From an uncultured Candidatus Poseidoniales archaeon (GTDB lineage: Archaea > Thermoplasmatota > Poseidoniia > Poseidoniales > Thalassarchaeaceae), in contig CAXDMJ010000001.1 of the NCBI GenBank assembly GCA_963990035.1, positions 10,622 to 74,621 of the forward strand: 64,000 nt of DNA. Direction: 5' to 3'. The translations under genes and the position numbers were made by a program. The notes beneath the pieces were generated by a model. It saw only the letters and a list, made by a program, of their open reading frames with translations, did not search any database and was not told the origin of the DNA. Positions 31,030 to 53,500 of the stretch are shown in pieces (position 1 is the stretch's first letter; each line of letters starts with the position of its first letter).

Positions 31030-34000
31030 TCAAGACCCATAATCTGGATCTTCTATCCAGTCATTAGATTCATCATCCCAAATCCATCCTTCTGATGTCT
31101 CGACATTTTCTGATGATTCATCATCACTTCCATCACCATCGTCTATTTCTACAAAGAAATATACAAATACACCACCCAGTAGACCAATAATTACGATTGA
31201 AATTATCGCAAGCATAACTGTAGATAATCCTTCATCAGACCCTCCTACTGAAATTTTAACATCACTTGAATAATCTGCTCCAACGTATCTAAATACTGGA
31301 GTCACAGGACCATCATCGAATCTAGATGATGGGATTCCTACGCTCCAAGTAGAATCAGAATTAACGATTGTACTATTTGCTGGAACTTGATTAATTAATG
31401 CAGTAACAGTTTTCCCAGGGAGACCTATTCCAGAGAATATAATACTTTCACCATTTTCAACAACTGTGATTTCAGGGGTATCAATTTGGAAAGTAACACC
31501 AACTACTGTGAAAGTAACAGGAATAGAAATTTCTCTTGAACCGAAAGGATCGGTTGCCATGAAGATTACATTTTCTAGAGTCCAAGAACTCATATTATTA
31601 TCATAAAAGAACATAGAAATTGGGTCATAAATTGCGAGGCCATCTTGACCTACATTAATTACTAATGCGAATTCATCATCATTAGTATCGGATGGATTGT
31701 CATAAACTGATAAAATAAGATTTTGTCCATCTAAATCTGAGAAGAAATCATTTAAATCAATTTCACCTTTAGTGCATCGATCCTGAGATTGTGAGGAAAT
31801 TTCACAATATAGGACTATATCTTTTATCCAGTTATCTGAATCAAAACTAGGTTGATTATTTCCTGCATCTGAAGGATTATCTGCAATGATATTTATTGTA
31901 CTCATATCACTAAAGTCATAACCATCATAAGATCTAATATCTATAGCATATTCAAAGTCATGTTGAAGAATAGTAGGGTCCCATTCGGTAGACCAAGCAC
32001 CATTTACTTCGAAATCTGTCACGGACTGTTGATGGACAATTATTCCACCATTGTAAATATCTCTTACTGTTATATCTACTCTCGATACTGAACCATCATT
32101 ATCTCTTGCAACGCCCTGTATTGTTGTATCAGATACAGAAACTCTTTCACCATCTTGAGGAGATATTATATTAATGAAAGGTATTGAATTAGAGTTGTCA
32201 ATGGTTAGAGTCATTGTAACTGCATCACATTCATCGATAACACTCAAACAAAAGTCTGAATCAGAAGCCCAAATTGTAAATATATATTCAGCTGATACCC
32301 TTGGTTGACCACTGAAATCCCATGTCCATGACCAATCTGCTCCGCCAGAGGTTGGAGTAGTACCTTCAAAATTAGGTCCACTAATATAGAAATAAACCTC
32401 TCCTATATCTTTACTACAATCAAGAGGACATCCATATTGATCATACGCAGTTCCTTCGAACGTCACTGAACCATCTGACCAAGTTGAAGCATCACTAGGA
32501 GATGATACTGTAATTACAGGAGGCGCAGCATTTAGCTTAATTGTTCTAGAGATAATTGGACTATAGTCAATACCATCAAAAGATCTGAATTCGAAAGTAT
32601 AATCTGTTTCTTGGTAATTCGTCATATCAAAAGAGTAGTACCAAGAATTGAATGGATGATTGAATCGAGTAACTGATTCAGGTTCGGCTCCACTATCATC
32701 AATGCCAAGGCCTGCAGAAGCCCATTCACTTGTGAATGGATCACGCACCTCTATTGAATGAATATATCCTTTTTGATCCCATTGTGCTAGAGAATCAGTT
32801 GCATAAAACCCTGCTAGTTGTCCATCATGCGCGGAACCAGTGAAGTTGACTATTTTTCTAAAGGAATGACCATTTTCTTGAATTACAGATACTGAAGGTC
32901 CCGAATTAAATAGATTAATAGTATCTTGATACGTCACATCTTGGACTACAAAATCACTACGATCATAACCAAATCCAAAACGGTATGCAGTATAGTAGTA
33001 ACGAGATAACTCACGTGTTCCTAGAGTGTAATCACAGTCTAAATCGTTGTTATCAATAGTTAAATCGCCATCATTATCAATACCATCAGAACATGAATCT
33101 TCATATTCATCATCAGCAAAACCATCAGGATTGTCACCTCCGGCTAATCCTCTGAAGTCCAGATGTGAATCAGATGCTAAAGCAAACCATGGAGTATAAC
33201 CATTTTGATCAGTATATAATGAGTAAAGATCATTGCCGAGCGCATCTTCAATAAGCACATTTGCATTTTCAACCTTCACACCATCAACCAACGTTTGGAA
33301 TCTAGCCATTTCAGCTCTTCGGACCTGAACTGCATACTGAGTGGGTTGAGATTTAATAAAAATCTTCGAAGTATCAACATTAGAAAGATTAGCAAATGTA
33401 AACACAGTGGAGTTATTATCCATACTCAATGCTAATGGGAAATTAATTGGTGTTAGATTCTCACAACTTACACATTCCGAAATTGCAGTAGGTATAATTG
33501 CACCTTGGAATCCATTTGCTGGCCATGCTTCTTGATCTGGCCAATCGAGAATAACAGGGAACTCGCCAGGAGGTGCACTAGGGATAAATTCAGATTGAAC
33601 AGTTACAGAAGATTTAGTCACATTGTAAGCTGTTTCAATACCGTTCCAAGTATTCAGAGAAAAGAAACCTAGAGATCCATATTGTTGAGTATTAGCAAAA
33701 CCACTATCATAATTACGTATTACTGCACCAGTTCCGGGTGTATTGAACAAATTTCTTTGGACATCCATGAGGCCTCCAATTGCTCTAATTCCATCAGCAT
33801 CTCCACCCATACTAAATTCATTATCATAAAGTGTCATTCCTGATCGGAATAGACTGACTGCAGGGCAAGTATACTCACCATCCCAATATTTGAAGCTAGA
33901 ACAGGTCCCTGGAGAATCAACATTGACGGTATTGTTTGAAAAATGAAGTCTAGATGCAGATGGTGCAGGCCCTGAACTACTTAATTCACCAACTTGTACA

Positions 34001-35232
34001 GGAGTCTTAGCTGTATTCGTGATTGTATTATATTCGGCAATTACATCGAAAGATCCAGTTAGCCACAAACCATTCCATCCACCTATTGGACCTATCTCAT
34101 TATTGTGAATATAGGCTTTACTTGATTGTACTGTGATACCTGAACGTTCACCAACTCCAGAAATCTCGTTATTATGTAATTCTACATTAGCACCATCATA
34201 AACAGTTATTCCAGAACCTGTATCAGTTGTAATTTCATTATTTCCAACCTCAATAGTAAATTCGACGCCTTGGATTGCTTTAATTCCATTAATATCGACT
34301 CCATTACAATTAACATTGATATCAGAATTCGTAATAAGACCTGATGAACTTGTTAGAGAAAATCCATAATCACCAGTATTAACAGTAGCATCATTAATTT
34401 CGATAAAAGTTCCTTCGGCCCAAAGTGTTGGACGACCTCCATCATTATTACCACAACCATTATCTGTTCCAATAAAAAATGGTGAATTCATGACAAGTGG
34501 GGATATCTGAGTCCCAGAGCCGTAAATTTGAACGGCAGAGCCCCCCACTCCACTCTTACCATCATTCCCTGCGACATATGTGCCACCCTCAAATATTGGT
34601 TGTGCTAAATTTGTAGTTAATACACTACTTGTATTTATGTTTGTGAAACGAATTTGGTTTAATGTTGGTGATGCTCCATCGATAACCATAGCACCATATC
34701 GCCATCGGTTAATTGAATCAATATAGTAGGGGATCCCCCAGGCATCATCAAATGTAATGTGCCTAAAACCTGTTTCAGATAGATCAATAGAACTACGAAT
34801 TAACATTCCCTCAAAACAAGATGCATCCTCAACTTGAATCTCTTGGGTTCCTTGCGTCATACCTTTACATTCACCGATTTCACTAGAATTTGAAGGATCA
34901 GTCCATCTAAGAGTGATTTTATTGGCTAAACTAGCGTCACCAGATGCACCGCATGAAGATACACCTGCACATATATTACCTCGGACATCTAGATATGTCC
35001 CATTAGGAAAAATTACAGTAGTACCTGGATTAATAATTAGTTTAGCACCAGAAGCAATAGTTACATCTCCAGTTAACTGATGGGTACCAGACCATGTTTC
35101 AGATGTAGTAATAGTTCCAGAGGTTGTTTCATTGTTAGCCATCACTGGAGTTGCGGGACCCACTAAAGCAATAAGAACACTAGATAACATTAGGAAAACG
35201 AGGAACGAACTTGTTGCACGACGCTTGGACAT
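31030..35232 (-). CDS. 1400-aa type-I surface protein: signal peptide, right-handed parallel beta-helix (PbH1) region, Cys/Asp-rich Ca-binding-like motif, Ig-like modules, TM anchor, acidic tail
   Basis: PbH1 turns are 'VELHNNEISGVGERSGITVQSSKAYIHNNEIGP'. 'CSDGIDNDGDLTIDNNDLDCDY' is encoded at rc of ~33028-33111. Ig-like modules include 'INIISPQDGERVSVSDTTIQGVARDNDGSVSRVDITV'. The TM helix is 'VMLAIISIVIIGLLGGVFVYFFV' and the tail is 'EIDDGDGSDDESSENVETSEGWIWDDESNDWIEDPDYGS'. Confidence 0.7.
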   Translation of the reverse strand: MSKRRATSSFLVFLMLSSVLIALVGPATPVMANNETTSGTITTSETWSGTHQLTGDVTIASGAKLIINPGTTVIFPNGTYLDVRGNICAGVSSCGASGDASLANKITLRWTDPSNSSEIGECKGMTQGTQEIQVEDASCFEGMLIRSSIDLSETGFRHITFDDAWGIPYYIDSINRWRYGAMVIDGASPTLNQIRFTNINTSSVLTTNLAQPIFEGGTYVAGNDGKSGVGGSAVQIYGSGTQISPLVMNSPFFIGTDNGCGNNDGGRPTLWAEGTFIEINDATVNTGDYGFSLTSSSGLITNSDINVNCNGVDINGIKAIQGVEFTIEVGNNEITTDTGSGITVYDGANVELHNNEISGVGERSGITVQSSKAYIHNNEIGPIGGWNGLWLTGSFDVIAEYNTITNTAKTPVQVGELSSSGPAPSASRLHFSNNTVNVDSPGTCSSFKYWDGEYTCPAVSLFRSGMTLYDNEFSMGGDADGIRAIGGLMDVQRNLFNTPGTGAVIRNYDSGFANTQQYGSLGFFSLNTWNGIETAYNVTKSSVTVQSEFIPSAPPGEFPVILDWPDQEAWPANGFQGAIIPTAISECVSCENLTPINFPLALSMDNNSTVFTFANLSNVDTSKIFIKSQPTQYAVQVRRAEMARFQTLVDGVKVENANVLIEDALGNDLYSLYTDQNGYTPWFALASDSHLDFRGLAGGDNPDGFADDEYEDSCSDGIDNDGDLTIDNNDLDCDYTLGTRELSRYYYTAYRFGFGYDRSDFVVQDVTYQDTINLFNSGPSVSVIQENGHSFRKIVNFTGSAHDGQLAGFYATDSLAQWDQKGYIHSIEVRDPFTSEWASAGLGIDDSGAEPESVTRFNHPFNSWYYSFDMTNYQETDYTFEFRSFDGIDYSPIISRTIKLNAAPPVITVSSPSDASTWSDGSVTFEGTAYDQYGCPLDCSKDIGEVYFYISGPNFEGTTPTSGGADWSWTWDFSGQPRVSAEYIFTIWASDSDFCLSVIDECDAVTMTLTIDNSNSIPFINIISPQDGERVSVSDTTIQGVARDNDGSVSRVDITVRDIYNGGIIVHQQSVTDFEVNGAWSTEWDPTILQHDFEYAIDIRSYDGYDFSDMSTINIIADNPSDAGNNQPSFDSDNWIKDIVLYCEISSQSQDRCTKGEIDLNDFFSDLDGQNLILSVYDNPSDTNDDEFALVINVGQDGLAIYDPISMFFYDNNMSSWTLENVIFMATDPFGSREISIPVTFTVVGVTFQIDTPEITVVENGESIIFSGIGLPGKTVTALINQVPANSTIVNSDSTWSVGIPSSRFDDGPVTPVFRYVGADYSSDVKISVGGSDEGLSTVMLAIISIVIIGLLGGVFVYFFVEIDDGDGSDDESSENVETSEGWIWDDESNDWIEDPDYGS

Positions 35233-35309: not shown

Positions 35310-36572
35310 CTATGCAATATTAAACGAAAAGGCCACTTCTTCGGACCATTTGACTACATCGAGACTACCATATCCAGAATGAGAATTATGAGAATTACTT
35401 CCAAAATTACCTCGGTCACAAGAACTTGCGAGTGATTGTTTCACCATACGCATTTCTTCTTCATCGATGATACCGTCAGAGCCTGCAATCTCATCTCCAA
35501 ATTGTTGAATTATAAGGGCTAATGCACCAGTTACAAAAACAGTAGAGGCACTAGTCCCTGAAGAATATGCATAAGGAGATGAAAGACTATTCGAAGCTGT
35601 GGAGAATATATTTACACCAGGTGCGATAACTTCTGGTTTTTGATTAGGGTACTCTCTATTTTCATCTGAAGATAAATCTGTAAGAGAGCCATAAGCACTA
35701 CTCCCCCAAACATACCCTGCTTTATTGTGAGCGCCTACTGAAATCACACCTGCAACGCTAGATGGTTGAGATACATCTTTCACATCCGGTTTAAGACCTG
35801 TGTTACCTGCAGCAGCTACAACAAATATCCCGGCATCAAGTGCTTCTTGAACGGCGATATTAGTTTGAGAATTAGATGATAGGTCAGAAGGTTCGCCTCC
35901 AAGACTCAATGAGATTATATCCACTCTTTGAGTTATTCTGCACCATCTGATAGCCTGAGCGACACGATCACCAGAACCAGAAGTCCCTTCATCATCAAGT
36001 GCCAAAGCAACAGAAAGTTCAACCATAGGAGCTGCACCCTTGAATGTACCATTAGATATCAATATACCAGTCATTAGTGTACCATGAGAATTATCCCCTA
36101 TATCTCTAATCAAGTCATGTTTACTCTCCACAAAATCTCTAAACCCAGATAATTCATGATGTGCAAAGTTAGGATGAGTCATATCAATTCCAGTGTCAAC
36201 AATACAAACATGTACTCCTTCGCCAAGAAATCCTTGTGATTGAATTTGTCTAATCCCAGTTGTTTCATCATATGCCCATTCAGAATCAGGTAAAATAGGT
36301 ATTAGTAATGCATTCACCCATGGCCAGCTCGCAATTAATAGAATTGTAAGTATCGAGAAAATAATTGCACCATTGGGCCAGAGGTACTCCTTCATAGGAC
36401 CAATAGGCCACCTTAATTCGCGAGCTTCTTGGTCACTAAGGCCATAGTCAGCCCCTGGATAACCCGGAGCAGAAGAGTCAATGGCAGTCAGAATCCTATG
36501 ATCTTCCGGCTCAGGTAACAAATCTAAATTTTCCAGAGGTCTCAATGATCCACCCCAATTAGAATGGAGCAC
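35310..36572 (-). CDS. Membrane-anchored subtilisin-like serine protease (S8)
   Basis: The catalytic triad motifs are 'CIVDTGID' (Asp), 'SHGTLMTG' (His) and 'SGTSASTVFVTGA' (Ser). The N-terminal TM helix is 'IIFSILTILLIASWPWV'. The track start at 36572 is GTG and overlaps the upstream gene by 14 nt. An alternative ATG at 36395 (MKEYLWP...) is possible. Confidence 0.85.
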   Translation of the reverse strand: MLHSNWGGSLRPLENLDLLPEPEDHRILTAIDSSAPGYPGADYGLSDQEARELRWPIGPMKEYLWPNGAIIFSILTILLIASWPWVNALLIPILPDSEWAYDETTGIRQIQSQGFLGEGVHVCIVDTGIDMTHPNFAHHELSGFRDFVESKHDLIRDIGDNSHGTLMTGILISNGTFKGAAPMVELSVALALDDEGTSGSGDRVAQAIRWCRITQRVDIISLSLGGEPSDLSSNSQTNIAVQEALDAGIFVVAAAGNTGLKPDVKDVSQPSSVAGVISVGAHNKAGYVWGSSAYGSLTDLSSDENREYPNQKPEVIAPGVNIFSTASNSLSSPYAYSSGTSASTVFVTGALALIIQQFGDEIAGSDGIIDEEEMRMVKQSLASSCDRGNFGSNSHNSHSGYGSLDVVKWSEEVAFSFNIA

Positions 36573-39500
36573 CTGGACGTCTTGAACGGCCTTTAGTCAA
36601 GAATGCAAATATTCCAACTAAAATTACTATTAGAATTGGAGCAATAATATCTGTACCCTCATCATCATTTGCTGCAGGAGAACGTACATCGATATTCCAA
36701 GAACCTATGAAAATTCCGTCTGATACATGCCAAGAGTCATCATTAATATTATCCTCACCGAATATACTTGAATTAATATCCATTACCAAGTAATATGGTC
36801 CAACTGTGATGTCAGATAGATCAAACAAGAAACTGAACTGCATAGATGATTCTGCACCTATATCCATAGTTGTAACTGTACTAACTGATGTAGGGTTATT
36901 ACAAGAAACATCATTACAAAGAGTCGCATTCAGTTGAACTTGTTTAGCTTCAACCAAACCAGTATTAGATACTGTTGCAATATATGTAATCTGACCACCT
37001 GCCTCAGGTTCACCTCCACCCAATGCTTGGGCTCCTTCTATCTTCAGAATAGGTTCTGAACTTCGTATATTAATTTCGATAGTTTCATATGAATTACCCG
37101 CCTTATCTGTTGCTGTAACATATATAGAAAACTCCTCATTAGATGAGGTTTCAGGGGCTACAACAGTAACACTGTGAGTTGTACTAACGAATCCACCAAG
37201 AGTATGAGAGGTTGGTCCTGTTCTACTCCATCCTTCAGGTAACTCTGAGTCATCAAATTCGAATTCATACTTATCATCGCCATTTCCAGCATTAGTAAAT
37301 TCAATTGGCACTATAATTAGTTCACCAGGAGATACACCATAGACTTCTTTCATAGGATTAGTCAACTCAAAACCATGTAATTGAGGAACTCTCACTGTTA
37401 ATTCGTGAGTATCCTGGTATCCATCTTGTGTAGAAATTAAAATTGTAATCATATGGCCATCATCGAAAGCATGAGCAACTGATTGATTAGCAGGAGTTAC
37501 TCGTATGTTCAAATCATCGAATGTTTGAGCATTATCAAGACCAACTTCAAACTGAGTAGAAGTATTCCAACCTGAGCCATTATTGAATTCTAATGTCCAT
37601 TCTGTACTGTCAGATCCTGAGACTATACCTCCAACTGTATAAAGATCATACGATTCATGTCCGAGATATTCAACTCCAAGAGTGAATTCAACTGGTACAA
37701 AGCCATCTGTTTCATTAACTACAAGATTTACATCATTAGTAGAACCAATATAACTCTCATGACCTGATGTAAGATTTAGGGTCTGAATAATAATCTCATG
37801 ATTTGAAACTCTATTGTATAATAGAGATAATACTGGAGATTCTTGACCAGAATAAACATCAGTCCCTCTACCTGCCATATATTCCATTGTAATCCCTCTC
37901 TGTTCAACATCAAAGTCACTTGAAAATTCAACATTACCATTAGGTAAAAGTAAATTCAAAGAGCCATCCGTTTCAACATCTTGTATCCACTTCATTCCAA
38001 ATCCAATATCAATGACTATATTGCCATCAACAATTTCTCCAAGATTACGAGATACACCATCATAGTCTAACCATTCAGTATTAACATCAAGAATACCTCC
38101 TCTTGTAAGTTCCATATCTAGATTACCACCATCAGTTACATCTACATTTATTAGACCCATTACAACCAAATCTTGACTTGGAACGCTAGCACTAACAATC
38201 CAAAGACCGGGCTCTAATTGAGCAGACCAGTTACCTAACCAACCTTCATCACCATAGAATAATAGTGGAGTCACAGTATCTCGTACAATACCTTCTGTAG
38301 GTATTATTGTAAGAACTACATCACCTTCTGGAATACTAGTAATCCCAAGATCATAAGAAATATTACCTGAAACATGAATTAGCCCCGCAGTTAGTTCAAG
38401 AAGAACATCATTAGGCACATCTGAAACAGATATACTTTGTTGAATACTTTCAAATCCATCATAAGAAGTATTTATTTCCCAAATTGTATTTGCAGGTACG
38501 AATAGCTCCCAATCACCATTATTACCTGATTCAATTGTATTATCAGGTAAGATTTCATTAGAGAATAACATAGTTACATCGGAAATACCTTCACCAACAT
38601 TGGATGCATCATTATCATTCAAGTCCCAATACACAGTACCTGAAATTGCAACATATAGATTTGCAATTAAATCGTAATGATTATCATCACTTATATCAAT
38701 AGATATAGGATACTCCTCAACTAGCCATCTATTACCATTTTCAGTGTAATTTAAAGACACTATCCATTCTCCAGTTACTAAACTAATATCAGTAAATCCA
38801 CTAGAGTTTGTAGCTTCGATACTGAATGAACCTAGGCCTTCTGCTGACTCGAGTAACAAACTTATACCATTTAACGAATCATTACTACCATCTTCAGATA
38901 ACGTAAAGGAAACTTCTGCAAGTTCACTGGTTGATAATACCAAGTCAGTAGCCGAATTCTCAGATGATACTGAAACTAATTCCCTAAGGCCCTCATGGAT
39001 ATCATTGTTCATTGTATCAGTAGTTACTATCCAATCACCTTCAGAAATAAAACCAATTATATTACCATCAATGTCTGTTGTTCGTGAAAGAATCCATCCA
39101 TTCTCAACATTAGTTAATCTTACTAATTGCTCAGATAGAACACCCCCACTTTCGTTTGTGAAAGACATATTAACTCGCCATTCAGGATCGAATCCTATTG
39201 TACGAGAAATTGTGGAAGACTCCATACCAACTTGGAAATTTACATCTCCAGTAAGGATACGTGTTCCGAATGTTTCACCAGAATTAGCATCTGAAATATC
39301 AACTGATATTCGATAAATCCCTGGTTCTACTGAAACCTCGGCATGACCTGTACCATTCCATTCTGAATCATCAATATTTATTTGGTAATCTAAGCCATTA
39401 ATCATTGATATTAAACTGAAATTATAGTTTACAGACGTTCCGTTAGAAAGATTATTATCTCCTGAGTGATCTAAGAAGAAGTCAACCAATAACAATGAAT

Positions 39501-42500
39501 CATCAGGATAGATAATAACTTCAACAGTATTATTAGAATTGTCTACATTAGTCACATTGGTTCCAGAAATAAATTCATCTGAATCAACAGAAAATTGCCA
39601 ATTACCCTTTGGAAGAACCATGTCAAATAATCCACCTTCATTAGATTGGGCACGCCACTGGACATCATAATCAAGATTATCAGCAATTACTGTTACTGAT
39701 TCCCAACCACCAATATCTCCATTGAACAAATTATCAGCTCTATTGATACTAATAACACCAGTAATCGACTGTCCTGGACGAGCAACCATAGTCACCTCAT
39801 CCATACCTGGTTCTACGGTAAATTGAGTACCATTAACTAATGTTAATGAGATTCCTAATTGAGTAATTGCATCAACTGTAGAACCTTCTGGTAGAACTAG
39901 AGAAAATGACCCATTCAAAGAAGTTCGAACTGTTGTGCTGAAACCATCCCAATAGAAATCTATTGGGACATCTTCCAGTATTTTTTCTTCATCAATAGAA
40001 AGATCGGTTGAATTCTCATTATAATATAATGTTCCAGTGACTACTTGACTAGTCTGGAATTCGTATATTGCAGAGAAATCATCGATTCCTACTTCAATCT
40101 CTACCCATAATTGCTCAGTATCAGAAAGAGTATGACTCAATATCCAGACACCTGGGATAAGTTCAGCATAGTAATCATTTGTCATTGAGTTAAATTCAAC
40201 ATTAACCATTGAACCTGATCCATTCTTAAGACTTAATGTCAGATCTAAATCATTTACAGATGTATCACTACCATTTTCATCTCTAATCAATGAGAATGTT
40301 AAATCAGTAGTTAGAGGGATAACAGACGGGAATACAAATGAAGATTCTTCATTTGCATCAAATATGTGCTCGCTGTAAACTTCAGAGAAACCATCGTTAT
40401 CCATATCAATTTCTATAATATATGTACCAGGCATAATAGGTCCATAATCCAATTTAGAATCAAATAATTCCCCATCTTCCCATAAAAGATTAGGGGAAAT
40501 TAGACATGGAGCATATTTCACAACACTACAGTCATCAATTGCGTCAGAAGCTAAAGAATCATTAGTTCTAAGAATAATTGAAGCCATCAAAGGATTCCCT
40601 GATTGATCAGTTAACTCACCAGTTATCGAACCTCCATTAATATCTATTTCAGTAATCGAATTAATAGGTTGTTGAGGTATTGAATATCCATCATTGATTT
40701 CAACACGTGTTCCATCACTGAAAATTATCGCTACATCGTAAGAACCCGGTATTGCATCTACTATGTGGAATGTACCTGGTTGGACCATTGTTCCACTAAA
40801 TACACCCGCGCCAGTAAATGATCCTGTACCATTTATACTACCATAACTGCTCAATGTTGTGTCTGAAGTATCAGTAGAAAATACTCCCGAACCCAGTAGA
40901 GTTGCTTGAACAAGTTTCTGTGTGAAAGATGCTACTCCATCAGCAGTAAAACGACCTGTAGCGTTAACTATACCATTTAAGAGATATTTACCATCTGATT
41001 GTATACATAAACTAGAGTTTTCAGGCATTGTTTCATTGACATCACAATCCATTAATTCAGTGACATCATCATTTATAATACCATCAATAACCCCTTTACC
41101 AGCAAACTCACCATCACCATTTAAACTATGATTGTTGAATACTGTTTGTGTATAATTACCTGTGAAGTCAGTAATTTTAGCCGTTGTAGCTGTAATCACA
41201 TTACCTTCACCAGTGAATGTCACTTCTCCAGTACCTTCAAATCTTAGATTATCTCCTTCGATAGAACCATTGGATGTTGAGAGTAAATATGGATCTATGT
41301 TGATCAAATCCCATGAGGGGGATAATTCAACAGTTGCATCGTCTAAAGAATCGCCAGAGAATATTTCTGAACCCGCCCATACTAATCGACCAGTAGATGA
41401 TGCTGGCTCTACAGTAATTGGCACCGATATAACGGATTCTCCATTACTATGACCATCTGTTCCAGAAATATTAACAATAGTTTCAGATAACCAAGTAGAT
41501 CCTGAAACATTACCTAGAATCCCTGTGATTGGATTGAGATTCCTAACACCAGGTGAAACATCTTCGAAAAGGTCACCAAGAGATTGACCTACATTAGAAG
41601 TCATGATTAAAGTTCTTGCAGAATCTAAGTCCGAATCACCATAGAATGCAGAGACTCGAATTTTACCTGCAGGAGCAATGAAACTATATTCTCCATTTTC
41701 ATCAGCATCTGCGGTACCAATAGGAATCCAGTAGGTTCTCTGATCTCTATCAGTCACATGACCATCAATTTCTATCTCGTCACCACTAAATGCATCACGC
41801 TCGATGAGGATTTTTGCATTTGGAATAGGTCCTAAACCATCTAATTCAACAGTTCCTTCAATAGTAGCACCACTATAGTATTTCATTACCTTGACTTGAG
41901 TATTAGCACTTCCAATACCAAGATTAGAACAATCTTCGTCTAATTGAGTATCATTATCATCTGTTTCACAGTCTGGGCTATACCAATTAGATAAAACCAT
42001 ATGATTCATCATTGCACCAGGAAGAGGGTATGCATTCTCTAGGTATGAACCAGGAGCACCTGAAGTATAGAAATGAGGAGCAGGTTGTTCTGCATCACCT
42101 GGAAGACCCAAGGTTGAGGTTCCATATCCAACATAAATTCGTGCAACCATTGTTTCAAAGAATTCTGGCTGATGTTGATAATCAATATCCACCATTCTAA
42201 TCATCTCATTAACATCTGTTAATGCACCTGATTGTTGGCGTATTACATCATTAAGATACTCTGCTTCATATTCTGCAGAACTACGTGGAATTATAGGTCC
42301 ATCACCTCTCTGGGTTTCATAAATTGATGAGATATATGTTTCAGTATCTAATCCAGATAAGGAGGTAGGAGCATGGAAAATACCAGTAGTTTGTCCCTGG
42401 TGATAACTATAATCCTCATAGTAATTTCCACCAAGTGGGTATAGGCGATTATCTACAGCGAAATATCTAATTTCATTATTCCTTGAGACAGTATCTCCTA

Positions 42501-45500
42501 ATGGACCCTCATAATTCTGAACCTCATATACTAATTCCGTTGAAATATCGTGATATAAGTCATTAATACCATTTGAATCAAATATTTCTAACAGTAGTGC
42601 TCTACTTAATGCAAGTTTTGCATTAACACGATGGAGACCAGAAGATACATCCTCAAAATCATCAATTAAATCAGGAGTATACCTGTATCCTGCGATATCA
42701 TAGTATTGAATTACTAATTCACCATTAGAATCTCTATCTAATTCAGAAACTGAATTTCTTATAGAATTATATGCATCTTTTGCAGAATCAAAGTCAGCAT
42801 AGGTATCTAATTCTTCACCATCATCCAGAATAACCCATGTCTGGATATCGCTTGGGATACCATCTACATTAAGTTGATAACCAGTTAATAATTCATATTT
42901 TGAATCAGCTGCAACAACAGACATTGAACGACTTAGGACTAGATTTGAATCATCCTTTCCAAGTTCCATTATTGTATTAAATTCATTATATTGCTCCTCA
43001 GTCATATGACCATCAAGAAGTAAGTTTGTGAAAGCAGGAGTGAATTGACCAGAATTAGATCTTCTATCTCCCTGCGCTAATGTAGTAATGAATAATGAGA
43101 GTGTATCTTCTTGACTTGCTGACAATAACATTGCACCGCTATTTGGAATTCCAGACTGGAAGTTATCTGCAACAGTTGGATGCTCACCTTGAGCAAGGGC
43201 TTGGAAACCATAATCCCACCACGAAACAAAGGCAGGACGTTCAGAGAAACTAACATCAGAATCTTGTTCAGATAGCCACTCATATGCCATATTCCACGAA
43301 CCTGAGTTGAAACCTGGGCCAAAAGTACCCATATACCATAAATCACTATTTGCATCATAATTCTCACTATTCAATAAAGATAAACCAAGTATTTCTTGTC
43401 GGAAAACATCAGGAGTAATGTCATGAATAGTTTGATCAACATTAGAAGCAGATTGTTCCCCTCTTGGGATACCTGAGTCAATACCATAGGTCATATGCTG
43501 AGAACAAACTAACATTAGAACAAGTATAACCGCAGGAATTCCTGGATGCCTCTTAGATGCAGACCAGTTAGCCCAAAAACGTGACCTAGGAGTTGCAATA
43601 CCAGATTTCCTCCACTCTTTACTAAATCCAGAGAAATTAGCATAATTCCACATCATAGCAATTCCTATTCCACCTACTACTGAAATTGCAGGTGTCGCAT
43701 TAAATATGAATCGCCCAGCGGACCAAGCCATGTATATTGCAATAAGGACCCATAATCCAAGAAGAATATGACTTTGTTTTTCTTTACGTGCACCACGCCA
43801 TACTAACATCACAGAAACAATGATTGCTATCAAAGAAACTATAGGGCCGTATGATGCGAAAAGAACGCCTCTACTAGGTGCCTGTGCTTCACCAATAGTA
43901 CCGAATATTTTATTCTTGGAGAAATAAAATCCTCCTGTGAAGAGTGTATCCCAACCAGCGTAAAGACCCGCTTCCTGTAGTAGGTAAAGTGTAGCAAGGA
44001 TACCTGACATTAATACTACAGTACTTCCCAGTACCAATAACCAAGGCCTATCTCGATATGATGATGCAATCCAGCCCAATGCAAAGGTAAAGCCAATTAT
44101 GTAGAACATTGGTTGGAAACCACTTGCATCGAACAATAAATTAAGACCAGGCCAACAATAGAATGGCAATGGTATTACAAATGCAGTAAGCATCATCTGT
44201 AATGATGCTGCTGTAATAGGCAAACTATCTCTGCGCCTAAACATATTGAAGAATATTTGGAATGCAAATGCAATAAATAAGATGCCAGGTCCGTAAACAA
44301 ATCCTTTCCAACCCAGAGCAACAACAGCAAATGAAACTCCAGATAAAGTAGCATTAGACATCACCGTAGGATTCCTTAACCACATTTCTCTTATTCCTGC
44401 AACTATATACAATGGATTCAAACTTGGAGTGGTGAATAATCTCTTGTTAGTAATTTCATCCATAGCCTTAACCCAATAATAGAATGCAATTGCTAAGAAT
44501 AGCATAGCAAAAGCGTCGTGATCAGCAAGACCAAAGGTAGAGTGGCTGATATGACCAGGCATAAGGGCAATTAACCAAGCAGCAACTATACCTGCCATAT
44601 TACTATGTAACTTTCTAGCAAGTCCAGCGATAGGGAGGACAATTAATGCACCAAATACAGCGGGTAAAGATGCAACACTCCACCAAACAGATTCTTCCAT
44701 AGCCATACCAGATAACCATGAAAGAAGGATTCCTCCTAAGGCAAGAGACCAAGAGAAAAGAGGAGGACGCGGATTGATTGCTATCATAGGATAAGCTCTA
44801 TCTGAGTCTATAATTAGATGGCTTCTTTCAGCCACTACGTAATCTACAATTCTCTTCATATACCAAGGGTCTGAACCTCCTGACATATCCCAGAGACCAG
44901 TCCCAGCAGCATTCATAGCAGGGAGAATATTCCATCCAGTTCTAACTGCTAAAGCAATGAAAAGAGCGAAACCGACCATTATGCTATATGAATGTTGATT
45001 CCACCATTTGCGGAAATCAGAATGATCTCTGCGAGGAGATATATCGCCAAGACGTCCACGACCAGCGACCATCATGGCACCAACATTTAGCCAGAATACT
45101 AAGAAAAACCATGTCAGTATACCTGCAGTATCATTTCCATTGAGTGGTGAGAATGGTAAATCATTACCAATCTCTTGCAAGTGAGCTATAGTATAAATTA
45201 TCCAGTTTAACGCAACTACAATTCCAATTACATGCCATCTCTCTGAATTACAGAAAGATACGAATAGAATTACTATTGTTGCAAACATAGCCCAAACTGA
45301 GCCAAGATAATGGTGATTGTTGTAAGATTCAATATCTTCAAGAGAACCGAGCCAAAGTAATGGTATCAGATTAACAAGGAATACCATACCAGCAGTAATT
45401 AAGCCAGCATTAGGCATAATTGAGGGGATATCTTTGAACCAAGACCCAATACCAGGAGATACAAATCGGCCTCTCATTGCTAGTGTCACAAGAATACCCA

Positions 45501-46050
45501 AAGCGATTGAAGCAGCCCATGATGCAAAGAAAATTGATCCAATAGAACTTCTAACTACATCGATTAACTCATCAGGATTACCGCTCCAAGTTGTATCATC
45601 TAAAGTGTATCGGGTTGCGAAAGAAATTGCAAGATGAAAACCTATTACAACTGAAAGTAATATTGATGATTCTTCATTTCTTTTGTGAGATGCTAAAATT
45701 AGAGATGCTACAAACATAAACCCGAAAGTGAAACCTTGCAAAGGTAAAGCAAATCCTAATTCAACAATTAGCAATGAAAATACTATGACGAATATAGAAA
45801 TTATTGAATTACGAGATTTAGAATCAAGTGCTGATTCTCCATATGTGTTCAAAATCCTACCAAGAAACGCGGCAAAAGCTGCGATAACTGGCAGGATTAA
45901 GAGGTCTACATATCCGTTATTCTCTATTCCAGCATTCGCGACATAGTCAGTTCCTAAGAAGAGCACCATCAAAGTTGCTAGCACCGCAGGAACTGGTAGT
46001 AAATCTTCATTAGAAAATACACCAACAGTCGCATCATTATCATCGTTCAT
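36559..46050 (-). CDS. aglB: Giant (3163 aa) AglB/STT3-family oligosaccharyltransferase fusion: N-terminal extra polytopic module + STT3 core + ~2100-aa beta-sandwich array + C-terminal TM anchor
   Basis: STT3 hallmarks appear in the expected order: 'GGSDPWYMKRIVDY' (EL1 acidic motif, rc of ~44850-44880), 'IDSDRAYP', 'GLADHDAF', 'SWWDYGFQ' (rc of 43207-43221) and 'TVADNFQSG'. The C-terminus is 'IIAPILIVILVGIFAFLTKGRSRRPGAPF'. GGTGAT lies 5 nt upstream of the ATG. Confidence 0.8.
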   Translation of the reverse strand: MNDDNDATVGVFSNEDLLPVPAVLATLMVLFLGTDYVANAGIENNGYVDLLILPVIAAFAAFLGRILNTYGESALDSKSRNSIISIFVIVFSLLIVELGFALPLQGFTFGFMFVASLILASHKRNEESSILLSVVIGFHLAISFATRYTLDDTTWSGNPDELIDVVRSSIGSIFFASWAASIALGILVTLAMRGRFVSPGIGSWFKDIPSIMPNAGLITAGMVFLVNLIPLLWLGSLEDIESYNNHHYLGSVWAMFATIVILFVSFCNSERWHVIGIVVALNWIIYTIAHLQEIGNDLPFSPLNGNDTAGILTWFFLVFWLNVGAMMVAGRGRLGDISPRRDHSDFRKWWNQHSYSIMVGFALFIALAVRTGWNILPAMNAAGTGLWDMSGGSDPWYMKRIVDYVVAERSHLIIDSDRAYPMIAINPRPPLFSWSLALGGILLSWLSGMAMEESVWWSVASLPAVFGALIVLPIAGLARKLHSNMAGIVAAWLIALMPGHISHSTFGLADHDAFAMLFLAIAFYYWVKAMDEITNKRLFTTPSLNPLYIVAGIREMWLRNPTVMSNATLSGVSFAVVALGWKGFVYGPGILFIAFAFQIFFNMFRRRDSLPITAASLQMMLTAFVIPLPFYCWPGLNLLFDASGFQPMFYIIGFTFALGWIASSYRDRPWLLVLGSTVVLMSGILATLYLLQEAGLYAGWDTLFTGGFYFSKNKIFGTIGEAQAPSRGVLFASYGPIVSLIAIIVSVMLVWRGARKEKQSHILLGLWVLIAIYMAWSAGRFIFNATPAISVVGGIGIAMMWNYANFSGFSKEWRKSGIATPRSRFWANWSASKRHPGIPAVILVLMLVCSQHMTYGIDSGIPRGEQSASNVDQTIHDITPDVFRQEILGLSLLNSENYDANSDLWYMGTFGPGFNSGSWNMAYEWLSEQDSDVSFSERPAFVSWWDYGFQALAQGEHPTVADNFQSGIPNSGAMLLSASQEDTLSLFITTLAQGDRRSNSGQFTPAFTNLLLDGHMTEEQYNEFNTIMELGKDDSNLVLSRSMSVVAADSKYELLTGYQLNVDGIPSDIQTWVILDDGEELDTYADFDSAKDAYNSIRNSVSELDRDSNGELVIQYYDIAGYRYTPDLIDDFEDVSSGLHRVNAKLALSRALLLEIFDSNGINDLYHDISTELVYEVQNYEGPLGDTVSRNNEIRYFAVDNRLYPLGGNYYEDYSYHQGQTTGIFHAPTSLSGLDTETYISSIYETQRGDGPIIPRSSAEYEAEYLNDVIRQQSGALTDVNEMIRMVDIDYQHQPEFFETMVARIYVGYGTSTLGLPGDAEQPAPHFYTSGAPGSYLENAYPLPGAMMNHMVLSNWYSPDCETDDNDTQLDEDCSNLGIGSANTQVKVMKYYSGATIEGTVELDGLGPIPNAKILIERDAFSGDEIEIDGHVTDRDQRTYWIPIGTADADENGEYSFIAPAGKIRVSAFYGDSDLDSARTLIMTSNVGQSLGDLFEDVSPGVRNLNPITGILGNVSGSTWLSETIVNISGTDGHSNGESVISVPITVEPASSTGRLVWAGSEIFSGDSLDDATVELSPSWDLINIDPYLLSTSNGSIEGDNLRFEGTGEVTFTGEGNVITATTAKITDFTGNYTQTVFNNHSLNGDGEFAGKGVIDGIINDDVTELMDCDVNETMPENSSLCIQSDGKYLLNGIVNATGRFTADGVASFTQKLVQATLLGSGVFSTDTSDTTLSSYGSINGTGSFTGAGVFSGTMVQPGTFHIVDAIPGSYDVAIIFSDGTRVEINDGYSIPQQPINSITEIDINGGSITGELTDQSGNPLMASIILRTNDSLASDAIDDCSVVKYAPCLISPNLLWEDGELFDSKLDYGPIMPGTYIIEIDMDNDGFSEVYSEHIFDANEESSFVFPSVIPLTTDLTFSLIRDENGSDTSVNDLDLTLSLKNGSGSMVNVEFNSMTNDYYAELIPGVWILSHTLSDTEQLWVEIEVGIDDFSAIYEFQTSQVVTGTLYYNENSTDLSIDEEKILEDVPIDFYWDGFSTTVRTSLNGSFSLVLPEGSTVDAITQLGISLTLVNGTQFTVEPGMDEVTMVARPGQSITGVISINRADNLFNGDIGGWESVTVIADNLDYDVQWRAQSNEGGLFDMVLPKGNWQFSVDSDEFISGTNVTNVDNSNNTVEVIIYPDDSLLLVDFFLDHSGDNNLSNGTSVNYNFSLISMINGLDYQINIDDSEWNGTGHAEVSVEPGIYRISVDISDANSGETFGTRILTGDVNFQVGMESSTISRTIGFDPEWRVNMSFTNESGGVLSEQLVRLTNVENGWILSRTTDIDGNIIGFISEGDWIVTTDTMNNDIHEGLRELVSVSSENSATDLVLSTSELAEVSFTLSEDGSNDSLNGISLLLESAEGLGSFSIEATNSSGFTDISLVTGEWIVSLNYTENGNRWLVEEYPISIDISDDNHYDLIANLYVAISGTVYWDLNDNDASNVGEGISDVTMLFSNEILPDNTIESGNNGDWELFVPANTIWEINTSYDGFESIQQSISVSDVPNDVLLELTAGLIHVSGNISYDLGITSIPEGDVVLTIIPTEGIVRDTVTPLLFYGDEGWLGNWSAQLEPGLWIVSASVPSQDLVVMGLINVDVTDGGNLDMELTRGGILDVNTEWLDYDGVSRNLGEIVDGNIVIDIGFGMKWIQDVETDGSLNLLLPNGNVEFSSDFDVEQRGITMEYMAGRGTDVYSGQESPVLSLLYNRVSNHEIIIQTLNLTSGHESYIGSTNDVNLVVNETDGFVPVEFTLGVEYLGHESYDLYTVGGIVSGSDSTEWTLEFNNGSGWNTSTQFEVGLDNAQTFDDLNIRVTPANQSVAHAFDDGHMITILISTQDGYQDTHELTVRVPQLHGFELTNPMKEVYGVSPGELIIVPIEFTNAGNGDDKYEFEFDDSELPEGWSRTGPTSHTLGGFVSTTHSVTVVAPETSSNEEFSIYVTATDKAGNSYETIEINIRSSEPILKIEGAQALGGGEPEAGGQITYIATVSNTGLVEAKQVQLNATLCNDVSCNNPTSVSTVTTMDIGAESSMQFSFLFDLSDITVGPYYLVMDINSSIFGEDNINDDSWHVSDGIFIGSWNIDVRSPAANDDEGTDIIAPILIVILVGIFAFLTKGRSRRPGAPF
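43207..43221 (-). other. WWDYG catalytic motif of STT3/AglB
   Basis: The plus strand 'accataatcccacca' is the rc of TGG TGG GAT TAT GGT, encoding W944-W-D-Y-G of the 3163-aa ORF. Confidence 0.85.
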
Positions 46051-50528: not shown

Positions 50529-53500
50529 TCACTCAAACTGATTGCATAATTCACCTTGGCTAGGGAAACTCACAGGATCTTTTGGATTCGTATTCCATTT
50601 ACTTTCACACTTATTCAAAGAACCATCGCCATCAGAATCAATATTAGCATCGGCAGCATCATATGGATCAAAATTAAAGAAATATTCCCATCCTGCCCAC
50701 ATACCGTCACCATCTTGGTCTTGATGGAATACTTCTGAACCGTCATTCCACTGATCACCATCCGTATCATTTAGAATAGGGCTTGTACCATTCTGCATTT
50801 CTTCATAATTAGTATAATTCTCAAGATCATCATAGAACCTCTTACCGTATGATGTCGTTTCATCAATATGACATTCAGCATTTTGAGGATTATCCCATCC
50901 TGGACAATAACGGAATAGAAGGTTGGTACGATTAAGTCCATCGCGATCGAAATCCTCCTGTCCGTCATCTATACCATCTAAGTCTGAATCAGTCATTGAA
51001 GGATCCATAGGTCCTCGAGCACCTAGAGCATTCAGAGAATTATTATCCACAAGTCCCAAGGATATTGCTTCACCTGAGTAGAATACCTCCCATCCATCTG
51101 GTAATTTATCGTTATCAGTATCATCATTAACTGGGTTTGTATTCCACCTATCTGGAGCTTCAAGTTGATTCATCAAAGTGTCATTATCGACATCATAGAT
51201 ATTATCAATCATTGAACCATATGCAGGATCAAGTGCCCAGCGACCATTATTTGGTATTACAAAGCCTGAAAGATTCATCTCATGGAGGAAATATTTAGGG
51301 TCCATGACACCATCTCCATCTCTATCTCCAGATGTAGAAAAACCTTGAATATAATTAGTCCAAACCCATCCACCTGGACCAAGCCCGCACTCAAACATAT
51401 TGTCACATCCAGGAGGTAACCAGTTTGTACTACTAATCCATAGGCTATGACTATTAGTATTCTGTTGAACTGAGAATACTTGCATCTCCCAACCGTCTGG
51501 CTGTCCATCATTATCAGTGTCATTAATTAGAGGATTTGTTGCTGCTTGCCAAGGACGTGGTATAAATAAAACTTCACCACCATCATCTAATCCGTCTCCA
51601 TCACTATCTGCATTATTACCATGAGTGATATATTGGTCGCGACCATCTACAACCTCTTCTCCATCTGCTAAACCATCATTATCAGTATCAAATGAAGAGG
51701 CATTAGTGAAATATTTTTCAGTAATATTCCAGTAAAAGCCATCCATAGCCTCAGTGAAATCTTCTAATCCGTCACTATCAGTATCTCGATCGGTAGCATT
51801 AGTAAATGTTTCATAATATTCTACTGAATCTGATAACCCATCGCTGTCTGTATCGAATACACCAGGGTCACTCCTCACGAGAACATCCTTTACTCCGTTA
51901 TCAACAACTCTAATAGTCCAACCAATAACTTCTATGCCGTCAATTAAGCCATCATTATCAGTATCTGCCAGTAATGGATTTGTGGAACGACCATCTGTTA
52001 TTCCATCACCATCTCTATCCCTAGCATTATACTCATCTAAATTAGTAAACCTCTCATCCTGCTCTACTACAATGGCTAAGTCTTGAGTTCTTGTCATTAC
52101 TTCATCACCTACATTGACATTTATTTCATAAATCCAACCTTCAGTTAGAGTTTTGACAGGAATATTCACATATACACTATTTTGAACTGTACGGACCCAT
52201 AGTATGGTTTTGTTAACTGGAACATAGTCCCCTAATTCAACAGATATTAGGTGTACTGTGCTGAAACCTATGAGTTCATCAAATCTAACCCCACCATCAC
52301 CATCTGAGTCATAACCATCAAAATCAGGATCTTCTAATGCATTGGCACCATCATCATTCGGATGAATGCCATTCAAGTGTTCCCAACCATCAGGCATGCC
52401 ATCATTATCGGTATCAGCTAGTAAAGGACTAGTGAAATTTTCAGGCCCCCAAGTGTAAGCAACTTCATATTCTTCGACATTGTTAAGGCCATCTTCATCC
52501 CTATCGCCATATGCATCAGTAGCATTTGCAGGGTTTAGGAATCTGTTAGATTCTAAATCTAAAGCATAACAGTATTCGTAACCATCAGGCATACCATCAC
52601 CATCTGAATCCCAGTCACCGGGTCCATTTAGACGACCATCTCCGTCCATATCCTGCTCAAACCAAGTCATATCACCTGGACCTGACATATATTCATGATA
52701 TGGGGACTTGAGAGTTAATGTACCAAACTGAGTAACTCCACAGTGAACTGATAAATCGATATTCCCAAAAGCAATTTCATATCTATCAGCAATTAAATCA
52801 CCATCACTATCTTCTTCTAGTGGGTTGGTATCATATCTTTCTTCGACGTAATTCCTCAGACTATCTGGCTCGGGTTGTTCTAAATCTAATAATGCATCAC
52901 ATGAGTGACCAAACTGGTTACCCATTGCATCAAAGGTGCTAGCACCTATATCTGCTCTAATCTGAGCCTTAACATCTGGAGTTAGTATGTAGCAATCCCA
53001 ATTCCCATCGAGGGGGTCAAGAAGTTTAATTTGCCCTTGAGGTGTTTCTACAGTATATGTGTAAAGCGATTCCCAACGATCATTTAACCCATCGCCATCA
53101 GAATCTTGAAGATTAGGATTTGTACCTAGAGCTGCTTCATCTACGTTAATCAAGCCATCTCGATCAGGGTCACCAAATGGGCCGTTATCAGGATTAGGAA
53201 AGGTTTCATTTAATTCGGTATTTTCTTCAGCCTCATCTGGATTTGTAGTTTGAGCACTAGGATCCGCGGCTTCTCCACTATCTAATGGATCGAGACCATT
53301 ATCTATTTCCCAGCCATCATCCAGACCATCACTATCTGTATCTGAGACTCTCCAATCAGTACCATAGAGAGTTTGTTCCATTCGATCAGGTAATCCATCA
53401 CCATCTGTATCTACCCCTTCTTGATGGTTTTCAGAATCTAAAGTCACTATATCGACTGAACCATCTTCCCAACCAGAAACAGTTGCTAATCCTGCACCAA

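Follow-up and report, generated by a model that had tools for sequence, protein, structure and literature searches.

Exploring a 64,000-nucleotide stretch of DNA from an uncultured Candidatus Poseidoniales archaeon (contig CAXDMJ010000001.1, positions 10,622 to 74,621; hereafter the window), we found that one open reading frame (ORF) on the minus strand encodes a 3163-residue protein of the AglB/STT3 family of oligosaccharyltransferases (OSTs). The source lineage is a marine group IIb (Thalassarchaeaceae) archaeon and the protein is the Poseidoniales (marine group II, MGII) orthologue of archaeal AglB. AglB and STT3 proteins usually measure 600-1000 aa and carry one modest soluble domain. That the product of this ORF is an AglB orthologue composed of a block of transmembrane (TM) helices, a catalytic core, ~17 Ig-like modules, another TM helix beyond them and a tail of the form RRxxAPF is, in our judgement, next to certain. 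The full statement that the Poseidoniales giant AglB is a working OST joined to a rigid, glycosylated structural arch appears to us mildly probable, and the scaffold function of the array, taken on its own, is a tentative suggestion that we hold with somewhat less than even confidence. The parts of the protein are as follows.

36559..46050, minus strand: complete ORF of the giant AglB/STT3, 3163 aa without interruption (ORF listing and translation)
45016..46050, minus strand: N-terminal extension, aa 1-345, ~9-10 predicted TM helices (hydropathy scan)
43486..45015, minus strand: STT3 membrane core, aa 346-855, from TM1 at ~354-375 to the last TM helix at ~837-855 (PF02516 and TIGR04154)
44851-44874, minus strand: SDPWYMKR, aa 393-400, with Asp394 as the catalytic residue of external loop 1
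aa 414-421, minus strand: IDSDRAYP (string search)
44509..44532, minus strand: GLADHDAF, aa 507-514, holding D510-H511-D512, the second metal-binding motif
43888..43899, minus strand: T718-I-G-E721 (TIXE) of external loop 5, read from the sequence, the loop placement being putative
43207..43221, minus strand: WWDYG, aa 944-948 (WWDYGFQ, aa 944-950), the motif binding the sequon Ser/Thr
aa 959-965, minus strand: TVADNFQ (string search)
41896..43485, minus strand: membrane-proximal extracytoplasmic region, aa 856-1385 (conservation profile and AlphaFold2)
36655..41895, minus strand: all-beta array, aa 1386-3132, ~1750 aa, ~17 Ig-like/CnaB/CarboxypepD_reg-like modules (AlphaFold2 models)
aa 1455-1471, minus strand: YSFIAPAGKIRVSAFYG, an ectodomain string quoted in the initial annotation and present
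aa 3021-3044, minus strand: ITYIATVSNTGLVEAKQVQLNATL, a second quoted ectodomain string, likewise present
36598..36654, minus strand: C-terminal TM helix, aa 3133-3151, hydropathy peak 2.62, with an equivalent helix in the Poseidoniales homologues
36562..36597, minus strand: cytoplasmic basic tail TKGRSRRPGAPF with an invariant R-R-x-x-A-P-F at the C-terminus
aa 3153-3163, minus strand: KGRSRRPGAPF, the end of the ORF

The initial annotation, made from the letters of the window, had described one uninterrupted ORF with the STT3 motifs in canonical order. This description held: all quoted strings are present and WWDYG lies exactly at 43207-43221. STT3 was also recovered by profile searches over aa ~350-1000, the Pfam model PF02516 matching aa 392-783 with 51.7 bits (cut-off 24.5) and TIGR04154 matching aa 358-982 with an E-value of 1e-43 over profile positions 3-575 of 831. 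The score of the latter, 149.8 bits, is below the curated cut-off of 450, and membership in the archaeosortase A system-associated AglB subfamily (archaeo_STT3) was therefore rejected. Apart from TIGR04154, the NCBIfam scan of the giant AglB returned just a weak choice_anch_T match and no match to a PGF-CTERM model, and a Pfam AglB_core-like match stayed below threshold (17.9-19.8 bits vs 27). Comparison with the PDB gave AglB and STT3 chains as the best matches, the core aligning to Archaeoglobus fulgidus AglB-L (3WAJ/5GMY) with an E-value of 5e-11. In this alignment GGSD394PWY pairs with GGND47PWY, AD510-H-D512 pairs with ND161-H-H163 and WWDYG at 944 pairs with WWDYG at 550 of A. fulgidus AglB-L; the residue numbers D161/H163 of its second motif are presumably those of the 3WAJ paper. 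T718-I-G-E721 is presumably the TIXE motif as established for AglB. S393-R400, D510/H511/D512, T718-I-G-E721 and WWDYG are all invariant among 28 homologues, and mean identity across homologues is 0.6-0.8 over the core. As far as the sequence goes, those features needed for transfer of a lipid-linked glycan to Asn-X-Ser/Thr that could be assigned are intact, and the protein is most likely a working OST. For an 'aglB' gene of an MGIIb-O1 MAG (metagenome-assembled genome), in situ transcription is documented, with enrichment during periods of activity of that genus (PMC9723583).

The gene is neither rare nor variable in length. Our search of 5.8 billion proteins yielded 483 homologues; full-length orthologues of 3145-3340 aa occur in more than 100 protein clusters with few gaps and identities of 99-41%, and among the 120 homologues listed of these 483, 111 are at least 3100 aa long, originating from ENA, NCBI, JGI, Tara and Logan assemblies. 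Scanning GTDB with one genome per species, we found a relative encoded in ~460 species genomes. The best 80 are all Poseidoniales (MGII), many of them Thalassarchaeaceae (MGIIb), and their loci include the single-amplified genomes (SAGs) AG-313-L18 and AG-404-A19 and long-read MAGs (LRMED-021, 698-kb contig). An alignment of 28 sequences is colinear and nearly without gaps over the 3163 aa, and across aa 1201-1450, where a junction between core and array might be suspected, it has no gaps and an identity of 0.57-0.80. The junction is genuine and no assembly chimera, given this colinearity in more than 100 independent clusters that include single-cell and long-read assemblies. The closest locus among the best 80 (L032, Thalassarchaeaceae, 85% identity) was used to compute the ratio of nonsynonymous to synonymous substitution rates (dN/dS), which is 0.034 for the core, 0.146 for the N-terminal extension and ~0.11 for the array; selection therefore maintains every part of the protein.

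The hydropathy scan revealed ~9-10 helices within aa 16-330, the STT3 set at ~354-855 and a single strong helix at 3133-3151, with no convincing TM segment between aa 855 and 3133. The C-terminal helix bears out the earlier proposal of a protein anchored at both ends, an account that had left out the TM block of aa 1-345 ahead of the core. What emerges is an STT3/AglB whose intact core shares one polypeptide chain with a huge all-beta ectodomain and with a further membrane anchor at the C-terminus. In the N-terminal extension several charged and aromatic motifs are conserved, namely EES (126-128), ERW (270-272), NWxxY (282-286) and EIGN (293-296), and the extension has no match in Pfam or the PDB. 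A duplicated STT3 half was considered and rejected, as hhalign against the STT3 core gave a probability of 0.2%. A hidden Markov model (HMM) built from the extension matched none of 82 non-Poseidoniales giant AglBs (described below), indicating that the extension is specific to Poseidoniales.

The membrane-proximal region, aa 856-1385, contains WWDYG and DNFQSGIP, a helical/small-beta insertion at ~985-1185 and two very conserved blocks at ~1190-1240 and ~1297-1357, and it is much larger than in known AglBs. In the AlphaFold2 model the predicted local distance difference test score (pLDDT) is high for aa 985-1185 and low for the two conserved blocks; the low values probably stem from the omission of their membrane partner from the model. 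Segments of aa 1150-1449 match 42-51 of the 82 non-Poseidoniales giants.

The nature of the array was determined from AlphaFold2 structure models and not from Pfam. AlphaFold2 was run with a 46-sequence alignment, in which the window segment was set against full-length database proteins, and returned pLDDT values of 85-92 for aa 1395-1945 and a mean of 85.4 for aa 1950-3140, both stretches being essentially all beta. Foldseek against the PDB retrieved solely multi-Ig scaffolds, i.e. Gram-positive pilins, MG domains of alpha-2-macroglobulin, HYDIN-like ciliary proteins, a mastigoneme and integrin legs, and no enzyme. Pfam matches on the beta modules, namely CarboxypepD_reg (26-26.6 bits vs 32.3, one module), DUF11 and CARDB, stayed below threshold. 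Of the earlier description as beta-sandwich, carboxypeptidase-regulatory-like and CARDB-like modules, the all-beta fold is thus upheld by the models while the named families are found at sub-threshold level only. It had also been called a repeat array, which does not agree with the segment HMMs, where modules resemble each other merely at E-values of 1e-4 to 1e-6. We rejected a recent tandem-repeat array on account of this weak off-diagonal similarity; the modules are old and diverged. Within the array, conservation is highest in the modules next to the catalytic domain (identity ~0.7 at aa 1401-1450 and 1501-1550), and identity in the distal ectodomain is 0.35-0.55.

The composition of the ectodomain is strongly acidic (D+E 15.9% vs K+R 3.4%). 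It holds 37 sequons, compared with 27.6 +/- 4.6 in composition-preserving shuffles, and ~14 of the 37 are kept in at least 74% of homologues. The enrichment is modest and the density over the whole protein, 1.33 per 100 aa, agrees with the values of 1.3-1.7 obtained for other secreted ORFs of the window, so that "very frequent", as the sequons had been called, overstates the case. The pairs C1669/C1682 and C1841/C1849 are invariant, as is a DxDxDG loop, D1882-x-D-x-D-G. A GxG-rich segment with FxGxGxVxFxG-type periodicity covers aa ~1596-1752 (~40795-41265, minus strand); its pLDDT is ~90 and it has very long strands of up to 42 residues, unlike the neighbouring Ig-like modules. The second beta module carries an invariant GHSNG at aa 1533-1537 (~41440-41454, minus strand) beside the invariant sequon V-N1527-I-S. 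GHSNG is specific to Poseidoniales, being absent from the non-Poseidoniales giants. As a GxSxG sequence it was considered as a hidden serine-hydrolase site, which is disfavoured by the all-beta model of the module, by the lack of a hydrolase among the Foldseek matches and by this same absence. Some homologues carry lineage-specific insertions of 82, 66 and 59 aa after query aa 1362, 1674 and 2781, respectively; the 66-aa insertion contains GGSGY/GGTGY, and the 59-aa insertion is an Asp-rich, thrombospondin-type-3-like stretch (e.g. in P0099, P0111, P0116 and P0119).

An exhaustive phmmer search with aa 346-1400 as query against 1.84 billion cluster representatives separated two tiers of giants. 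The first is the Poseidoniales group, of 3146-3230 aa; the second comprises more than 80 representatives of 2000-2775 aa that are 29-37% identical over the STT3 core, which in these proteins begins close to the N-terminus. Those of the second tier that bear a name come from Thermoplasmata, Ca. Thermoplasmatota and Methanomethylophilaceae MAGs and are annotated as 'carboxypeptidase regulatory-like domain-containing' or 'glycosyltransferase family 39'. Among the 82 non-Poseidoniales giants of at least 2000 aa, 80 have WWDYG at ~570-800 and a C-terminal TM helix with a basic tail. Proteins of the second tier resemble the Poseidoniales giant in their core with WWDYG, in a long, homologous and colinear all-beta ectodomain and in the C-terminal helix and basic tail; they differ in lacking the 345-aa extension, in being 400-1100 aa shorter and in their tail, which is RRRK-like and has no APF ending. 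Segment HMMs of the Poseidoniales ectodomain matched the second tier in the same order (median Spearman 0.98 over 27 proteins with at least 5 segments), and the arrays are therefore homologous and inherited from a common giant ancestor rather than the outcome of repeated fusions. The initial annotation spoke of a fusion; in the sense of a recent join this term is misplaced, the array being an old, orthologous part of fixed length, colinear with the 2000-2775-aa AglBs of other Thermoplasmatota. As read from these sequences the design is ancient and widespread and derives from an ancestor shared with other Thermoplasmatota. One locus of the second tier was inspected (L081/L082 1-7762, Thermoplasmata MAG). 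There a 2449-aa giant AglB, P0140, lies directly downstream of and on the same strand as an 8356-aa protein without a Pfam match and a 1077-aa Ig/PKD protein, and no S8 protease gene is adjacent.

At the C-terminus, R3157, R3158, A3161, P3162 and F3163 are invariant in the 28-sequence alignment. Across the 80 loci and the window, examination of 3754 stop-to-stop frames (minimum length 80 aa) showed that the RRxxAPF ending is confined to the giant AglB family, two interrupted copies included. A general sorting signal was hence rejected, as the ending occurs on no other ORF of the window and in no other family of the 80 loci. The tail may be a cytoplasmic docking motif. The C-terminus, ...GTDIIAPILIVILVGIFAFLTKGRSRRPGAPF, contains no PGF tripeptide and is not of the PGF-CTERM, archaeosortase-processed type. 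In two loci (L034 and L073) the giant AglB frame is interrupted and C-terminal fragments of 687 and 1051 aa end in RRPGAPF/RRPNAPF; these interruptions may reflect a frameshift, a sequencing error or pseudogenisation.

We propose that the core would act as the N-glycosylating OST of the cell at the membrane surface. Because both ends of the ~2300-residue extracytoplasmic chain are in the membrane, this chain would form a closed loop or arch with its base at the enzyme, whose contour, taking ~4 nm per Ig-like module, would come to ~70 nm. Since the chain is acidic, of near-fixed length and endowed with conserved sequons, disulfide pairs and calcium-binding-type loops, it would be a rigid, glycosylated structural element, and the arch could serve as a spacer or canopy that gives order to the coat of surface glycoproteins, or to a pseudo-periplasmic zone, around the point of glycoprotein synthesis. 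The array itself is probably glycosylated by the enzyme, whether in cis or in trans. Thermoplasmatales, which are relatives of this lineage, are reported to have no paracrystalline S-layer (PMC12448462). An S-layer-like or self-glycosylating scaffold, which the initial annotation had put forward, is possible; its other proposal, an OST set well away from the membrane, is untenable, as the catalytic residues lie in and next to the membrane-embedded core.

Several points weigh against this proposal. The predicted template modelling scores of both AlphaFold2 models are only 0.47-0.51, too low to fix the inter-domain geometry and with it the height or shape of an arch, and the enrichment of sequons is weak, amounting to ~2 standard deviations. 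No DxxK or MxxI of the DK/MI motif could be assigned with confidence, its expected region having a pLDDT below 50 in a model that did not include the TM domain. The housekeeping role of the OST is assumed, part of the assumption being that this is the sole STT3 of the genome, and the terms 'arch', 'spacer' and 'coat' are drawn from topology and composition. To our knowledge no image of a Poseidoniales envelope exists, and an S-layer is possible there. Finally, the S8 protease encoded next to AglB in Poseidoniales raises the possibility that the protein is cleaved after synthesis. A bolder version of the proposal, in which the OST itself would be a major architectural protein of the envelope in Poseidoniales and the wider Thermoplasmatota, thousands of copies of membrane-rooted, calcium-stiffened, self-glycosylated arches of 17 Ig modules replacing an S-layer and setting the thickness of the pseudo-periplasm while RRxxAPF couples them to an intracellular partner, strikes us as quite unlikely.

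A different role for the array would be that of a substrate-handling platform that captures nascent polypeptides emerging from the Sec translocon, holds them unfolded or positions them for the active site, as a single-chain version of the lumenal domains of ribophorins and OST48 or of the NOMO arm of the multipass translocon of the endoplasmic reticulum (ER). The high conservation of the modules nearest the catalytic domain (aa 1401-1450 and 1501-1550) and the invariant GHSNG/VNIS block of the second module are in line with such a role, as are a weak Pfam NOMO1-like_2nd match on a non-Poseidoniales giant and NOMO2, the sole non-STT3 PDB match of the family profile (E 0.64, not significant). 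Because the covalent linkage to the enzyme is permanent across the whole phylum, a role tied to glycosylation is also what one would expect on this account. However, 17 modules and a second anchor exceed the apparent need for positioning, purifying selection extends to the distal modules, no peptide-binding or lectin domain was recognised by Pfam or Foldseek, and canonical AglBs of 600-1000 aa are known to work without such a module. We regard a substrate platform as unlikely, if worth keeping in mind.

The gene order around AglB bears on a further explanation. In the window it reads CarS, purD, AglB, an S8 subtilase, a 1400-aa beta-helix/Big_7 protein, a TPR/AAA regulator, an MBL hydrolase and a 1906-aa protein, and order and orientation are alike in nearly all Poseidoniales loci with flanking sequence, down to 39% AglB identity. 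The S8 gene lies directly downstream of the giant AglB in almost every such locus, L032 having its best match elsewhere. With the GTG start given in the ORF list, the gene overlaps the stop of AglB by 14 nucleotides, and an alternative Met60 (~36395) precedes the predicted TM anchor, so that the start is uncertain. The subtilase and the large secreted proteins of the window are located as follows.

35310..36572, minus strand: S8 subtilase gene (Pfam Peptidase_S8, E 2e-39)
31030-35232, minus strand: 1400-aa secreted protein with a right-handed beta-helix and Big_7
21717-27437, minus strand: 1906-aa secreted protein with bacterial thrombospondin type-3 (TSP3) repeats
50529-53576, minus strand: 1015-aa secreted protein with bacterial TSP3 repeats
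4319-7213, plus strand: 964-aa large secreted protein

The sequon density of the 1906-, 1015-, 1400- and 964-aa proteins is 0.9-1.7 per 100 aa, and all four are likely to be glycosylated by the OST and to belong to the surface coat. As for the subtilase, it might, as a membrane-anchored protease, cleave the giant outside the cell into an AglB of conventional size and an anchored or shed Ig-domain coat protein, co-translation merely yielding equal amounts of both products. The position of the S8 gene on the same strand directly after AglB, conserved to 39% AglB identity, its predicted N-terminal TM anchor and the low-confidence, less conserved linkers at aa ~1001-1100 and 1340-1393 speak for a precursor of this kind. 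Yet the non-Poseidoniales giants share the architecture without an adjacent S8 gene (one locus), no conserved cleavage motif was identified, and adjacency is weak evidence, as purD and CarS are equally syntenic and functionally unrelated. Such processing is, to our mind, very unlikely.

Still more doubtful is an adhesin, in which the array would attach to particles, to the surfaces of algae or to other cells, with the OST core as no more than its membrane anchor. Ig-like/CnaB-type folds do resemble those of Gram-positive pilins and adhesins, weak CARDB/DUF11 matches were obtained, and Poseidoniales are thought to be particle-attached and to possess other large proteins with thrombospondin repeats (PMC6461757), of which the window encodes two. 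Unlike variable, repeat-expanding adhesins, the array is single-copy and colinear, has a near-invariant length, a dN/dS of ~0.11 and no recent repeats; membrane anchors at both ends likewise disfavour the adhesin role suggested in the initial annotation, the invariance of the catalytic residues implies that the core is no mere anchor, and neither Pfam nor Foldseek found a lectin or other known binding domain. An artefact, i.e. an assembly chimera or a read-through of AglB into an adjacent surface-protein gene, has nothing but the unusual length in its favour and is practically negligible in view of the identical continuous ORF in 111 of the 120 listed clusters from independent projects, SAGs and long-read MAGs, the gap-free junction and the purifying selection on each segment.

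Comparison with known systems places the giant within an established enzyme family. Like archaeal AglB, eukaryotic STT3 and bacterial PglB (GT-C fold, CAZy GT66), it has a multi-TM core with an extracytoplasmic domain behind it. Among solved structures the nearest is A. fulgidus AglB-L (PDB 3WAJ, 5GMY, 7E9S), whose first-loop Asp, D-H-D, TIXE, WWDYG and xxDNFQxGI block are aligned or present in the giant; the giant measures 3163 aa against 875 aa and adds the TM block, ~1750 aa of Ig-like modules, the second TM anchor and the conserved tail. NOMO (nodal modulator; PDB 9C7V), which belongs to the BOS complex in the ER multipass translocon, offers a works-like analogy only with the array, whose fold class as seen by Foldseek is compatible with it: it too is a non-cytoplasmic chain of CarboxypepD_reg/Ig-like sandwiches that finishes in a single C-terminal TM helix with a short tail and sits next to protein-biogenesis machinery, but its match to the giant family profile is not significant, it is a protein of its own whose signal peptide is cleaved off and it has no enzyme fused to it. 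In the eukaryotic OST, ribophorin I/II and OST48 place lumenal beta-rich domains beside STT3, and an OST can profit from such large non-catalytic partners. Unlike the parts of the giant AglB these are separate polypeptides, and none of them was among the Foldseek/PDB matches. S-layer glycoproteins of the Haloferax SLG type are similarly large, acidic and N-glycosylated and end in a TM segment with a basic tail; they differ in their PGF-CTERM/ArtA processing and cleaved signal peptide, whereas the giant has no PGF motif and its N-terminus is an enzyme of 22-plus TM helices. Adhesins of the Bap/RTX/SiiE type have near-identical tandem repeats of variable copy number, which the array of the giant lacks.

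For proteins with an STT3 core, a colinear all-beta ectodomain of more than 1000 aa and a C-terminal TM helix with a basic tail we use the group name 'Thermoplasmatota giant double-anchored AglB', which is defined here and uncurated, and to which the protein of the window belongs. Databases hold thousands of giant AglB sequences under inconsistent labels, among them hypothetical, GT39, carboxypeptidase regulatory-like and Stt3, some IMG entries reading 'asparagine N-glycosylation enzyme membrane subunit Stt3'. Our searches of the open-access full-text literature brought up no description of an AglB of giant size or with two anchors, either from MGII or from other Thermoplasmatota, subscription-only surveys of AglB phylogeny lying outside this search, and the two main MGII comparative genomics papers make no mention of it. 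AglBs of comparable size are hence already catalogued and common in sequence databases, though not in the open full-text literature. We conclude that the sequence is common in databases while the architecture is undescribed in the searchable literature, and that the giant AglB is no new enzyme class.

Poseidoniales rank with the surface ocean's most abundant archaea. The whole order has an AglB 3-4 times the usual size with a fixed, double-anchored Ig ectodomain, and many other Thermoplasmatota have a shorter, colinear form. The giant AglB is a concrete candidate for the organisation of archaeal envelopes that lack an S-layer or are uncharacterised, and, as a single-chain case from a prokaryote, it parallels the question why the OSTs of eukaryotes require large lumenal accessory subunits. 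Under the bolder, quite unlikely version of the structural proposal, a single polypeptide would make the glycoprotein coat as its enzyme and also support that coat as its scaffold.

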